IMG/VR virus record: IMGVR_UViG_3300045988_019695
Location: 32,001-96,000 of that record
DNA: 64,000 nucleotides
DNA from: a virus
Direction: 5' to 3' (one strand)
Shown here: positions 29,894-37,612 of the stretch, piece by piece
Layout: each line of letters starts with the position of its first letter
Position numbering within the stretch: position 1 is the stretch's first letter
The notes under the pieces: generated by a model
Told to the model about the DNA's origin: nothing
Seen by the model: only the letters and a program-made list of their open reading frames with translations
Database searches by the model: none
Position numbers and translations under genes: made by a program

Positions 29894-29910
29894 ACGTAAG
29901 TGAATTAGGC

Positions 29911-30462
29911 CTATCCTTCACTTACCTCAGCACCTTCTTGTGCCGCCGCTGGCTCTGGTACGGACTCAACCTGTTCCTTAAGCTGTGACTGAGTTCCCGT
30001 AGCTGCGCTAGATTCATTCTCATTATCTGTGCCAGTAGAACCAAATCCACCCTCACCTCTCTCTGTAGGTGTAAGCTCTGAAACTTCTGTAATTTCGTAC
30101 TCTGGTACAGGAACTATGACTAACTGACAGAATCTCTCTCCCTTCTGATATACTGCAGGGATTGCATCTGTTGTTGCCTTCATGACAGCCAGGATCTCAC
30201 CTCTGTAGTCACTGTCTATCACTCCGACATTATCTGTAAGCCATAATGATTTCTTCCAAATACTAGAGCGTGGTATAAGTAAACCAACATATCCGGCAGG
30301 AATCTCAACTGCCAATCCTGTATGGTAAACCAACATTAGCTGATTTGCTTCATTAATAACTGTATCTATCTTAATGCAAGTCAAATCAATTCCTGCAGCA
30401 CCTTTTGTGCCACGAATAGGAAGGATTGCTTTATCCTCAAGTCTCTTAAATTTTAACTCCAT
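29911..30462 (-). CDS. dut: dUTP pyrophosphatase (trimeric dUTPase) with acidic C-terminal extension
   Basis: Motifs AAGIDL, PRSS, GVIDSDYRGE and GGFGSTG. The ORF ends in TAG, with a TAA two codons later. Confidence 0.9.
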   Translation of the reverse strand: MELKFKRLEDKAILPIRGTKGAAGIDLTCIKIDTVINEANQLMLVYHTGLAVEIPAGYVGLLIPRSSIWKKSLWLTDNVGVIDSDYRGEILAVMKATTDAIPAVYQKGERFCQLVIVPVPEYEITEVSELTPTERGEGGFGSTGTDNENESSAATGTQSQLKEQVESVPEPAAAQEGAEVSEG

Positions 30463-30488
30463 AGTATTTATAATATGTTTATTATTGT

Positions 30489-30530
30489 TACCCCACTAGG
30501 ATTCGAACCCAGACTAAACATAATCTTTTA
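30489..30530 (-). other. orphan tRNA 3'-half-like fragment (canonical T-arm plus acceptor strand)
   Basis: Minus-strand reading is CTGGG TTCGAAT CCTAG TGGGGTA A. No matching 5' half lies within 80 nt. The acceptor strand TGGGGTA is nearly identical to TGGGGCT of the suppressor tRNA 450 nt upstream. Confidence 0.5.
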
Positions 30531-30531
30531 A

Positions 30532-30960
30532 CTAGTCTATTGTAAGATTGTAGAAGTGAAGTTTTCTATGGCAATTTGCACATAGTACAACACATTTGTC
30601 AACTTCGTTTTTTATAGAAGCAACACCTTTGTCTCTACATTGGCTTCCTATGCTAAAAGACTTATCATGAAGATGATGAAAATCTAAGCAAGCTTGATCT
30701 TTTTCTCCACATATGATACAACCGTTAGATTTTAGTTGTCTCATATATTGTGTTAAAAATTTCTTATAAGATCTATGCTTTTTATATATATCATTCTTGT
30801 TCTTTTTGTAATATTCCTCATAATATTTATGTTTGCATTCCTTGCATTGAGGTGATAGGCCATCAGGTTTGCTACTATTCTTCGCAAACTGATCAAGTGG
30901 TTTTTCTATACCACATTTAGTGCATACTTTTGTTTTCATGTAAAAATATTTAATACGCAC
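30532..30960 (-). CDS. HNH endonuclease with zinc-ribbon-like CxxC pairs
   Basis: Motifs CTKCG..CKEC, CIICG, LDFHHLHDK and LCANCHRKLH. 142 aa with no internal TAG; the ORF ends in TAG. Confidence 0.8.
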   Translation of the reverse strand: MRIKYFYMKTKVCTKCGIEKPLDQFAKNSSKPDGLSPQCKECKHKYYEEYYKKNKNDIYKKHRSYKKFLTQYMRQLKSNGCIICGEKDQACLDFHHLHDKSFSIGSQCRDKGVASIKNEVDKCVVLCANCHRKLHFYNLTID

Positions 30961-30982
30961 CTCTAACCTACGTATTTATTAG

Positions 30983-31055
30983 TAGCCCCACTCCGTGTCC
31001 ATCGGAGACCTACTGTTTTAGAGACAGTTGTGCACAGGCGGTACACCATAGGGCA
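30983..31055 (-). tRNA. suppressor tRNA, anticodon CUA (reads TAG)
   Basis: 73 nt: TGCCCTA TG GTGT ACCGCCTGT GCAC A ACTGT CTCTAAA ACAGT AGGT CTCCG ATGGACA CGGAG TGGGGCT A. All four stems pair: the 5-bp anticodon and T stems are perfect, the D stem is 4 bp with one G-U, and the acceptor pairs 6 of 7. Loop CTCTAAA gives U33-CUA-A37. The D-loop lacks GG and the T-loop lacks TTC. Confidence 0.8.
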
Positions 31056-31060
31056 ATATA

Positions 31061-31135
31061 TGAGGACGCAGTGGAATCGAACCACTGTCTCTAAATCTTC
31101 AAATTTAGAAAGTTAACCATTACTACAACACCCTC
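31061..31135 (-). tRNA. tRNA-like gene with irregular anticodon arm (isotype undetermined)
   Basis: Good T-arm (AGTGG TTCGATT CCACT), a D-loop with GG and a G-U-rich acceptor. The anticodon helix TCTAAAT/ATTTAGA is 7 bp around a 6-nt loop TTGAAG (or 5 bp with the 8-nt loop TTTGAAGA), never the canonical 5+7. Confidence 0.5.
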
Positions 31136-31144
31136 ATTCTGTTG

Positions 31145-31216
31145 TTGCGGAGGACGGATTCGGACCGCCGACCTTTAGGTTATGAGCCTAACGAGCCACC
31201 ACTGCTCCACTCCGCG
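31145..31216 (-). tRNA. tRNA-Met (CAT), initiator-like
   Basis: Canonical cloverleaf: D stem GAGC/GCTC, anticodon arm TTAGG CTCATAA CCTAA, T-arm GGCGG TCCGAAT CCGTC. The C1 x A72 mismatch and A73 are as in bacterial tRNA-fMet, but the anticodon stem has only two G-C pairs. Confidence 0.75.
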
Positions 31217-31355
31217 ATAAGCACGTAACCTTTAGCTGGAGTTACGCAGAACCAGTATTGGGTCCATGTGTCAGCTTACCATGGTAGCCTTTTATTTATA
31301 GTGTACACACATGGATGCCACTTTATTAAACTATAAAATTTAATTCAAAAAGTCG

Positions 31356-31429
31356 GAGTCTATGCAGGAGTCGAACCTGCTAACTATTCCCTTTGTATCG
31401 GGCCGTCTTTACCGTTTGACTAATAGACT
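31356..31429 (-). tRNA. tRNA-like gene with degenerate anticodon stem (isotype undetermined)
   Basis: Perfect 7-bp acceptor (AGTCTAT/ATAGACT), canonical T-arm (GCAGG TTCGACT CCTGC) and a D-loop with GG. The anticodon region GGCCC GATACAAA GGGAA pairs only CCC/GGG around an 8-nt loop. Confidence 0.45.
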
Positions 31430-31773: not shown

Positions 31774-32163
31774 TTAACATGATTCACAACAAACGTCTCC
31801 ACAACAAGCATCATCACAAACAAGGCTCTCAGACTTGCTCTTCTGCTTAGCTGCCCACTCTTCCTTTCTCTTCTGATCAGCAGCTTTAGCATTATCAATA
31901 GCCTTTAACCAATCTTCAGACTTAACTATCACAAAGTCTGCGCCGAGATCTTTGTCATAGAATGTAACAAGAATGTCGTTCTTCTTTGCATCTACTTCGA
32001 TTATTTTATCAGGGAAGAATTTAGATTCCCACTCAATATGAGCGTCCTCTGGAATAACATAAATATCATCAATTCCTCGTGCAGATCTATTAATTGCCTT
32101 AACCTCAGCTGTATCAGTATCAACAACAATAGGCTTGCGTTCAATATTTATTATCTTTTTCAT
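31774..32163 (-). CDS. hypothetical protein with Cys-rich C-terminal tail (129 aa)
   Basis: Uninterrupted ORF. The last 17 residues are LVCDDACCGDVCCESC. Confidence 0.5.
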   Translation of the reverse strand: MKKIINIERKPIVVDTDTAEVKAINRSARGIDDIYVIPEDAHIEWESKFFPDKIIEVDAKKNDILVTFYDKDLGADFVIVKSEDWLKAIDNAKAADQKRKEEWAAKQKSKSESLVCDDACCGDVCCESC

Positions 32164-36663: not shown

Positions 36664-37612
36664 CTAGCTTGCATCGTAGCGCCCTCGTGGCGCTACCTTG
36701 CTTCTTTGACAAATGCAACTCGCTTCGCTCAGACATCAGCTTAAAGCTTGCTTAGAGCTTGCCAAAGAAAGGAGATGGCAAGATACACAGGTGAAATTTC
36801 AGATAGAACAGATAGATAATATAAAACATAATAAAGAAGTAATCCTTGATTGAAAATTCAATATATGATTGCACAATATGCTCATTAATTTAGGGTTATT
36901 TAATTGCTAAGCGTAGCACAATAAGCGTGGATACATATCACAGTCTGTGAAGATAGTGGTATGTTTATTTTAAACTCAGCTAGGGAGAGTCTAACATAAT
37001 CACTGATGAGACCTAGGCGAAACTACACGTTGCATCATAGTGTAGTCTGATTAATTACTCAAAAGCGCAAATAGACCTCACAATACAATGGTCTGTGAAG
37101 ATAGTTGTATTGAACCGTTATCTCATGCGGTATATAAACTAGGATGACGGAGCGCCTACGCTAACGTGATAAATCGTAGGCAGTAATGTGGCAAGACATG
37201 GTCCCAAGCCCATGCACTACAACACGTGCTTATGGTACTTGCAAAGCTATAAGAGGTTCGCTTGTAGGACACAGAGGGTTAAATAGTAGTATTACATGTA
37301 TGCTGAGAAGAGACGTACAGCCTGCTTGCAAGAGGTGCTTCGTGAAATGCAATCTCTTCTCTATGACAATCCGAAGAGACGGATAGTGGTTATTATACGC
37401 TTACTGAAGTAAGAGGGTATACTATGCACGAATTCATATAAGGATATTGTGCTTGGCTATATAAAGTGCACACATAGCGACGGTTCGAGTCCAGTAACCA
37501 CTCTACCCTATCATGTTTTTTAGTTACAATTTTAGTCCATTTGGCATGGGTACATTGGTTCGTGAGAATAGATGTACCATTTTGATGATTATTAATCAAA
37601 CTAATATATATT
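36664..37612 (+). ncRNA. 949-nt ORF-free structured region (candidate ncRNA or long leader)
   Basis: Stops occur in all frames. It starts with the hairpin GTAGCGCC CTCGT GGCGCTAC. The 20-nt direct repeat GTCTGTGAAGATAGT(G/T)GTAT lies at 36943-36962 and 37091-37110, with a third partial copy near 37375. It ends with a GGTTCGAGTCC T-loop-like motif near 37486. Confidence 0.4.

Follow-up and report, generated by a model that had tools for sequence, protein, structure and literature searches.

Here we describe a non-canonical transfer RNA (tRNA) gene with the anticodon CUA in a 64,000-nt stretch of viral DNA, positions 32,001 to 96,000 of the IMG/VR record IMGVR_UViG_3300045988_019695 (hereafter, the window). 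The gene very likely encodes a working amber-suppressor tRNA, the sole detectable tRNA(CUA) of a crAss-like (Burzaovirus-like) phage, and its elbow carries a flipped tertiary Watson-Crick pair, C19:G56 in place of G19:C56. The suppressor reading is supported by homology, covariation, conservation, genomic context, recoding and the absence of another CUA tRNA. The gene and its key positions are as follows:

30983-31055, minus strand: predicted amber-suppressor tRNA(CUA), non-canonical, defined by its sequence, the minimum-free-energy cloverleaf, the match to the covariance model R1 described below and recurrence in 26 loci
31055 (U1), 30984 (U72) and 30983 (A73), minus strand: acceptor end
31039 (G18) and 31038 (C19), minus strand: D loop
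31022 (U33) and 31021-31019 (anticodon CUA), minus strand: anticodon loop
31002 (A54), 31001 (U55), 31000 (G56), 30999 (G57), 30998 (A58) and 30996 (A60), minus strand: T loop

The gene is 73 nt long and, as read from the sequence, does not encode CCA. Its RNA is UGCCCUA UG GUGU ACCGCCUGU GCAC A ACUGU CUCUAAA ACAGU AGGU CUCCG AUGGACA CGGAG UGGGGCU A, with stems of 7, 4, 5 and 5 bp, and a 7-nt anticodon loop, U33, a purine at position 37 and G53-C61 are all present; except for a U1.U72 mismatch and a U13.G22 wobble, all stem positions pair. A preliminary description of this DNA, made from the letters alone, had proposed a four-stem cloverleaf, which is indeed the lowest-energy fold (-24.5 kcal/mol) and coincides exactly with the top match of a covariance model built from canonical relatives only. 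Its other readings of the sequence also stand: the anticodon loop is CUCUAAA with CUA as the anticodon, the D loop (ACCGCCUGU) has no GG, the T loop (AUGGACA) has no UUC, and positions 1 and 72 are U and U. In the alignment, U1.U72 is a derived state, canonical relatives having U1-A72 or U1.G72.

The elbow is only partly exchanged. With the D loop read as ACCG(18)C(19)CUGU and the T loop as A54 U55 G56 G57 A58 C59 A60, the alignment assigns the conserved G to position 18 and the conserved U to position 55; G57, A58 and G53-C61 are also retained, and three of the seven positions of the conserved elbow set (G18 G19 / U54 U55 C56 R57 A58) deviate, with 19 and 56 staying complementary. Beside the flip, the T loop carries U54->A and C60->A; position 54 is the sole T-loop fold position changed, and A54 lies opposite A58. 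The preliminary description had read the CC of the D loop and the GG of the T loop as a reciprocal swap of the elbow pairs. This is correct for the pair 19:56, in which C19 and G56 are exchanged, but does not extend to the whole elbow, because G18-U55, G57, A58 and G53-C61 are kept, the second C is an ordinary C20 and the second G an ordinary G57. Among 150 tRNA-like matches from all loci, one other T loop departs from UUCRA, that of the tRNA-Met(CAU) of the window (31145-31216, minus strand), which reads UCCGAAU, with C55 replacing the near-universal U55.

The preliminary description had warned that gene finders might miss the gene, as both of the finders tested did. ARAGORN reports four RNA genes in the window, 30983-31055 not among them, and a 1.1-kb search with the Rfam tRNA model (RF00005) leaves it out even with the limit at E <= 10, while detecting three neighboring tRNAs (31062-31134, 31145-31216 and 31356-31429, all on the minus strand). 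The flipped tRNA also remains uncalled by ARAGORN and below the Rfam gathering threshold of 29 bits in 25 other loci that carry it. In contrast to these general models, R1, a covariance model built from seven canonical phage tRNA(CUA) sequences with the candidate and its sister allele (see below) excluded, has 30983-31055 as its top match in the 64-kb window, at full length, with 61.4 bits and E = 4e-16. This ranking identifies the candidate as a diverged member of the canonical suppressor family and not a chance cloverleaf. The remedy for detection is simple, since a family-specific covariance model recovers the flipped tRNAs at 58-65 bits.

The window belongs to a crAss-like phage with ~85% identity, over the alignable 65% of a 3-kb query, to Burzaovirus phages cr124_1 and cr7_1 (Suoliviridae, Oafivirinae). 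Both of these carry a canonical tRNA(CUA), annotated as tRNA-Gln, directly upstream of the dUTPase gene, that is, at the same site as the candidate. The candidate agrees with the canonical tRNA in its 5' acceptor strand, UG linker, D stem and anticodon loop; the anticodon stem and the T stem differ between the two, yet pair in both.

We collected further relatives by pattern scans of IMG/VR and metagenome contigs in which the D loop, the anticodon arm and the T loop were unconstrained (loci are denoted by L numbers). The candidate body with D loop ACCGCCUGU and T loop AUGGACA is present in 26 loci, the window included. A sister allele, UGCCCUAUGGUGUACCGGCUGUGCACAUCUGUCUCUAAAACAGAAGGUCUCCGUUCGACCCGAGAGUAGGGCUA, with D loop ACCGGCUGU and T loop UUCGACC, was found in eight loci (L011, L019, L035, L038, L054, L068, L074 and L078); it is called by ARAGORN and reaches 27.3 bits with Rfam, slightly below the threshold of 29. 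The two alleles are alike in the D arm except for position 19, the variable loop, the 5' strand of the T stem and U1.U72, and L035 also shares the linkage to an HNH endonuclease gene described below. Compared with the sister allele, the candidate shows G19->C, C56->G, U54->A, C60->A, U27-A43 -> A27-U43 and A67->G, and lacks the bulged A of the T stem and the encoded CCA. By this comparison, the flipped gene descends, we infer, from a sister allele that still held G19:C56.

The fold is conserved in these relatives, and its absence from them had been named in the preliminary description as grounds for abandoning the gene; the 26 loci and the compensatory changes point the other way. In a covariation count over 13 distinct family sequences, with the cloverleaf and 19:56 (as a pseudoknot) entered, standard pairs occupy 98.3% of pair cells and nine pairs are altered on both sides; the covariation score is 0.411 versus 0.124 in shuffles, a value reached by 0 of 500, and slid controls are 36-55% paired. 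Within the flipped group, L066 has C2:G71 in place of G2:C71, and L084 has U1.G72. The covariance alignment that the preliminary description had proposed for the loops gave 19:56 as G:C in eight and C:G in five distinct sequences, and unpaired in none. In scans for mixed states that left both loops free, C19 with G56 occurred in 26 copies and G19 with C56 in the eight sister copies, with the half-changed state in 0 of 34.

The flipped tRNA is also strongly conserved relative to its surroundings. Across the 17 loci that share the downstream HNH gene, the tRNA varies at 2 of 73 sites (positions 1 and 33), compared with 8 of 43 in the spacer that follows it, 111 of 411 in the HNH open reading frame (ORF; Fisher p = 3e-7 versus the tRNA) and 7 of 33 in a relic of a canonical tRNA gene further downstream (p = 0.004 versus the tRNA). 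Upstream, the flipped tRNA is flanked by varying, mosaic combinations of tRNAs and inserts, and its downstream contexts number at least eight. All 26 copies have the same CUA anticodon and A37; the one variable position of the anticodon loop is 33, which is U or C.

The presumed clients of the suppressor are the late genes:

1-29891, minus strand: TAG-recoded late-gene block, presumed suppressor clients, recognized by ORFs with in-frame TAG and by TAG aligned with Gln

Treating TAG as a sense codon raises the share of the window covered by ORFs of >= 150 aa from 45% to 79%, and the minus-strand genes in 1-29891 contain up to 20 in-frame TAG apiece, which bears out the earlier remark that a CUA tRNA matches the recoding of the late genes. 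Of the 57 TAGs of the window that align with sense codons in relatives, 35 stand opposite Gln, as do 23 of 43 in the reverse comparison. This predominance of Gln fits the TAG-to-Gln code reported for crAss-like phages (PMC9523058). All loci with the flipped tRNA lie in TAG-recoded DNA, and the giant ORFs beyond the equivalent of the window in sister genomes contain up to 97 in-frame TAG.

According to the preliminary description, a second CUA tRNA of canonical type in the same genome would have spoken against the candidate. ARAGORN, Rfam and R1 found no other CUA tRNA in the window, and no canonical CUA tRNA was present nearby in 19 further loci with the flipped tRNA. The complete genome of cr124_1 contains a single CUA tRNA, located at this site. 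We also walked through four complete-length IMG/VR genomes with the flipped tRNA (contigs ..._012220, _007353, _028200 and _013227), seeding the walk from the window and sister contigs with X at TAG positions; a cr124_1 peptide query returned only 97-98% relatives. In the ~40-48 kb of each genome outside the equivalent of the window, neither ARAGORN and R1, run on all four genomes, nor Rfam, run on two of them, found a tRNA(CUA), and no convincing tRNA of any kind was seen there.

A weak R1 match at the sister equivalent of 60041-60105 was considered as a second suppressor and rejected, since it is a tRNA-like minihelix without an anticodon arm. In the window, this element (60041-60105, plus strand) consists of an acceptor-like stem and a T arm (GGUUCGAGACC), lacks both D and anticodon arms and has a fold z of -2.75; it is conserved in sister genomes, and cr124_1 has two ARAGORN 'tRNA-Val gac' genes there. 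Separately, a second CUA tRNA family (UCCCCAUUAGUAU...) occurs in contigs of 130-194 kb that also bear a canonical CUA tRNA. The D loops of this family are short, with a single G (AAUGCA, AAUGCUA, AAGUCA), and its T loops are ordinary. Its members are located at:

L004, 9111-9180: second-family CUA tRNA
L005, 11020-11089: second-family CUA tRNA
L009, 12496-12566: second-family CUA tRNA
L013, 7310-7380: second-family CUA tRNA
L027, 2413-2482: second-family CUA tRNA
L033, 5193-5262: second-family CUA tRNA

Downstream of the suppressor gene lies a cassette, not noticed in the preliminary description, that records the history of the site. Read in the direction of the tRNA, the order is the tRNA (31055-30983), a 43-nt spacer, an ORF (30939-30532), 14 nt, the relic UUAGUCUGGGUUCGAAUCCUAGUGGGGUAAC (30517-30487) and the dUTPase gene (30462-29911):

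30940-30982, minus strand: spacer between the tRNA and the HNH gene (CUAAUAAAUACGUAGGUUAGAGGUGCGUAUUAAAU...), delimited by alignments
30532-30939, minus strand: free-standing HNH endonuclease gene, 135 aa, ending in TAG, assigned by phrog_2255 and motifs
30487-30517, minus strand: relic of the 3' part (~positions 43-74) of a canonical tRNA(CUA) of the cr124_1 type, UUAGUCUGGGUUCGAAUCCUAGUGGGGUAAC, identified by its match to the canonical tRNA of L001/L002

The ORF matches the PHROGs family phrog_2255, 'HNH endonuclease' (1.1e-32), and its product has CxxC and CANCHRK motifs; Pfam gave nothing significant on this ORF, merely a sub-threshold Stc1 match. It is presumably a homing endonuclease gene. 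The gene is missing from cr124_1, cr7_1 and eight loci with the flipped tRNA; in two of the HNH-free loci, L065 and L080, the flipped tRNA is located directly at the canonical site beside the dUTPase gene. In L035, a 47%-identical homolog, preceded by a related spacer, immediately follows the sister tRNA and is absent from four near-identical genomes (L011, L019, L038 and L054); the spacer travels with the HNH gene. Frameshifted copies were found in L064/L077 and L071/L076. Presence and absence at one site, together with degenerate copies, indicate that the HNH gene behaves as a mobile, free-standing element.

The relic is situated after the stop codon of the HNH gene and before the dUTPase start, and R1 matches over it (30488-30573, 26.2 bits). 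It is present in 17 of 17 HNH-bearing loci, with an identical junction, and is decaying by substitutions, indels and T-loop mutations. A relic of the canonical gene beside the flipped tRNA implies that the canonical suppressor was the earlier occupant and has since been replaced. From these sequence remains, we conclude that the flipped allele replaced the canonical gene at this site, in the window along with the endonuclease gene.

When the TAG of the HNH ORF is read through, one frame of 357 codons (29905-30975, minus strand) runs via the relic into the dUTPase; a 1-nt indel at the junction in sister loci suggests that this frame is probably accidental. Some sister genomes contain group I introns (L063, 2379-2606, minus strand; L130, 9691-9976; L138, 19045-19330). 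One such intron (69 bits) splits the dUTPase gene just downstream of the tRNA/HNH cassette, and a second (87 bits) is located at the end of, or just past, a giant late ORF of ~4200 codons.

If functional, the tRNA(CUA) would be transcribed together with the tRNA cluster on the minus strand, trimmed by RNase P and 3' nucleases of the host and, because CCA is not encoded, tailed by the host CCA-adding enzyme. The host glutaminyl-tRNA synthetase (GlnRS) would then charge it, most likely with glutamine, and EF-Tu would deliver the charged tRNA, so that UAG would be read in the late genes. The L-shape would be maintained by the re-wired elbow, in which C19:G56 would have the same shape and the same stacking surface as G19:C56, and A54-A58 would take over from U54-A58, as in eukaryotic initiator tRNA. 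An engineered C19:G56 in the mitochondrial (mt) tRNASer(UGA) restores the charging that G19C abolishes (PMC10412605), which makes the flip structurally credible, and partners contact the elbow mainly through stacking against the flat, outermost pair, 19:56 (PMC10412605, PMC10944890), a surface that the flipped pair would keep. Without U54 and C56, the m5U54 modification is probably absent, and pseudouridine 55 may be missing as well. By default, the flip would have originated by compensatory evolution after a hit at one partner, and it was possibly fixed by hitch-hiking with the endonuclease gene.

A different origin for the flip would be a driver at the DNA level, which we regard as possible but rather unlikely. 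The HNH enzyme would cut canonical tRNA(CUA) genes, and the changes in the T loop and in the anticodon and T stems would make the linked copy immune. On the same account, and with the same reservation, G19->C would be an RNA-level repair of C56->G, and the cassette would destroy the resident suppressor and supply an uncuttable substitute. In 17 loci the HNH gene comes directly after the flipped tRNA, and in L035 directly after the sister allele, and in this sample it never stands beside an intact canonical tRNA; the canonical gene is broken near position 43 with the same junction in 17 of 17 loci, and the 3' ends of the relic match different canonical alleles (GGGGTAAC, GGGGCGAC), as if recombination tracts ended inside the relic. 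There is also a precedent in SegB of phage T4, which is encoded in a tRNA cluster and has a 27-bp site containing a conserved 11-bp T-psi-C stem-loop motif (PMC2330249). However, the relic retains GGTTCGAATCC right beside the endonuclease gene, and the HNH-linked sister tRNA of L035 is identical to HNH-free copies and keeps UUCGA, two observations which argue that immunity is not the whole story; moreover, eight loci have the flipped tRNA without the HNH gene, and the other tRNAs of the cluster retain ordinary T loops.

Several observations weigh against a working suppressor or temper the evidence for it. The energy of the fold is not significant (z = -1.3, with 20 of 200 shuffles equally stable) and hence uninformative, so that the case beyond chance rests on homology instead. 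The flip G19:C56 -> C19:G56 is a single evolutionary event inherited by all 26 copies and not repeated covariation; its weight therefore comes from the near-universality of positions 19 and 56 and from the strong later conservation. A73 and U1.U72 depart from the identity set of Escherichia coli tRNAGln (G73, U1-A72). C33, which replaces the near-universal U33 in 10 of 26 copies (L057, L058, L062-L064, L075, L077, L081, L083 and L085, all HNH-bearing, with C1 in addition in L064 and L077), could signal relaxed constraint. The four walked genomes carry this C33 allele and are sisters of the genome of the window, whose own remaining ~38 kb they do not cover, and a suppressor too divergent for ARAGORN, Rfam and R1, or one encoded by the host, may exist elsewhere. 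The genomes with C33 copies are TAG-recoded as heavily as the rest, and because those that were walked yielded no other CUA tRNA, the C33 allele appears to be a working suppressor.

The C33 copies, together with the rejection by general-purpose finders and the presence of C19, A54 and G56, would fit a decaying tRNA pseudogene, with UAG read by another tRNA, either phage-encoded and undetected or host-encoded. We nevertheless consider a dead gene very improbable: the sequence shows about a tenth of the variability of the neighboring ORF and the genuine relic, its stems are all intact with changes compensated, it is identical across many flank contexts, it occupies the ancestral suppressor locus where the canonical gene was destroyed, and no other CUA tRNA turned up in the searches described above. 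Slightly less probable still is a tRNA-shaped RNA with another job and no role in decoding, such as a decoy against a host tRNA-cleaving defense or a processing signal. Phage tRNA clusters have been tied to anti-defense, for example, in the case of SegB, Septu and tRNATyr (PMC13096335), and an altered elbow could evade host enzymes that read the elbow. Yet such a job would not explain why CUA and A37 never change while position 33 alone varies in the loop, why every locus is in TAG-recoded DNA, or how genomes that need a suppressor manage when the four sister-genome walks show no other one. Least probable is a split gene, with the HNH ORF in an intron and a mature tRNA that joins the 5' part (31055 onward) to the relic at 30517-30487. 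The relic does lie downstream in the same orientation, and group I introns are present in such phages, for example in the dUTPase gene of L063 and, at another place, in L130/L138. We rejected this arrangement because Rfam shows no intron ribozyme between the parts (30400-31100), the relic mutates freely, with junction indels and C56->T, a spliced product would set C19 against C56, and eight loci have a complete flipped tRNA with neither HNH gene nor relic.

The amber-suppressor reading can be compared with several known systems. Closest is the canonical crAss-like tRNA(CUA) (KNV57_gt04, 'tRNA-Gln', of Burzaovirus cr124_1), which has the same dUTPase-side locus, 5' acceptor strand, D stem and anticodon loop, and presumably the same job in a TAG-to-Gln recoded genome; the tRNA of the window differs from it in C19:G56, A54, A60, the 9-nt D loop, U1.U72, the different but compensated anticodon and T stems and the lack of an ARAGORN or Rfam call. 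A flipped or otherwise re-paired contact is known from the C19:G56 and A19:U56 mutants of human/bovine mt-tRNASer(UGA), in which a flipped pair stays chargeable and a broken one (G19C) does not (PMC10412605); those are laboratory constructs assayed in vitro, whereas the tRNA of the window is a natural, conserved allele of a bacterial virus. Eukaryotic initiator tRNA likewise has A54 opposite A58, as a Hoogsteen pair (PMC7912444). Unlike that tRNA, the tRNA of the window has no three G-C pairs in the anticodon stem, reads CUA and belongs to a bacterial context. A60, and C33 in 10 of the flipped copies, are also initiator-like, but the likeness is structural and does not reflect common ancestry.

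The cassette resembles T4 SegB in being a free-standing endonuclease gene among phage tRNA genes; the SegB site includes the T-psi-C motif, and SegB drives inheritance of the flanking tRNA genes (PMC2330249). SegB is, however, a GIY-YIG enzyme with no reported link to a re-wired tRNA, whereas the gene in the window is an HNH gene for which cleavage and homing are putative. Like tRNAPyl and metazoan mitochondrial tRNAs, the suppressor lacks the GG and UUC landmarks, and ARAGORN labels relatives 'Pyl' because tRNAPyl also has CUA. Unlike these, it keeps G18, U55, G57 and A58, and it descends from Gln-type phage suppressors. In tRNAPyl, the anticodon stem has 6 bp, the variable loop has 3 nt and one nucleotide separates the acceptor stem from the D stem. 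Identification as tRNAPyl was therefore rejected on architecture, since the corresponding features of the tRNA of the window are 5 bp, 4 nt and the dinucleotide UG.

Suppressor tRNAs of crAss-like phages, endonucleases in phage tRNA clusters, laboratory flips of 19:56 and A54 in initiators are already known; in the literature searched, we found no description of a natural, conserved tRNA with C19:G56. Two surveys report many recoded phages without a detectable suppressor and suspect divergent tRNAs, and the flipped tRNA is a concrete and widespread case of such a divergent, undetected suppressor, present in 26 metagenomic loci. The 73-nt sequence has no match in 50,697 GenBank phage records. 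The D-arm/T-stem pattern has none in 185,579 bacterial and archaeal genomes, which thus give no clue to the host, and the T arm alone, searched in viral contigs, returned known loci only and no paralog with a different anticodon. The allele amounts to a natural experiment on a highly conserved tRNA contact, since a flipped 19:56 with A54, and C33 in 10 of 26 copies, is apparently adequate for up to 97 UAG. It is thereby informative about the demands that RNase P, the CCA-adding enzyme, EF-Tu and the ribosome make on the elbow, and might be of use in the design of orthogonal suppressor tRNAs. The HNH linkage and the canonical relic show suppressor tRNA alleles moving between crAss-like phages. 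More speculatively, and in our estimation with the odds against it, the flipped elbow might be the RNA-level scar of a DNA-level conflict, in which a homing endonuclease attacks the conserved DNA of the phage's own essential suppressor tRNA gene, and the pressure to alter the T-loop DNA imposed C56->G before G19->C re-established the pair. In that event, even tRNA positions that hardly ever vary can be driven to new states by selfish nucleases, which may partly account for the many recoded phages that seem to have no suppressor tRNA.

The tRNA cluster beside the suppressor includes other unusual elements. The tRNA-like gene at 31062-31134 (minus strand; Rfam, 36.4 bits) has an 8-nt anticodon loop, UUUGAAGA, for which ARAGORN gives the anticodon 'tgaa'. 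At 31084-31095 (plus strand), it contains an exact 12-nt reverse complement (ACUGUCUCUAAA) of the suppressor anticodon arm, CUA included (31017-31028, minus strand); the complement spans the 3' anticodon stem, the variable loop and the T stem of the 31062-31134 gene. The 12-mer occurs twice in the window versus 0.01 expected, and the gene is absent from 149 of 149 other loci. The complement could be an inverted partial duplication, or the RNA might base-pair with the suppressor. ARAGORN also assigns four-base anticodons ('taaa' and 'ataa') to two further tRNA-like genes, which directly follow the flipped suppressor in two metagenome contigs (L070, 10487-10559, and L072, 411-483, both on the minus strand). 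The tRNA-like gene at 31356-31429 (minus strand; Rfam, 37.6 bits, no ARAGORN call) has good acceptor and T arms, and its 'anticodon arm' is merely CCC/GGG with an 8-nt loop, GAUACAAA (GAUAUAAA in some relatives). This element is conserved, without annotation, in cr124_1, cr7_1 and most of the sister loci.

Between that gene and tRNA-Met lies a conserved non-coding stretch (31217-31345, minus strand) with hairpins such as GCGUAAC-UCCAGCUAAAG-GUUACGU; it has no Rfam match, and its fold is no better than shuffles. In cr7_1 (L002, 2760-2950), L058 and L064, the stretch contains an extra insert of ~170 nt, flanked by a CCAAUACUGG repeat and a similar hairpin, which looks like a small mobile insert. 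Near the tRNA cluster, a sigma-70 promoter scan, whose coverage does not extend to Bacteroidales promoters, gave sites no commoner than in shuffles, and a terminator scan found none. Elsewhere in the window, we identified a RAGATH-1 hammerhead ribozyme (36973-37052, plus strand, 71.8 bits) and a permuted transfer-messenger RNA (42974-43206, plus strand, 56.5 bits) with the ARAGORN tag peptide DNVNNIVDYTNVA, both of which are also present in relatives.

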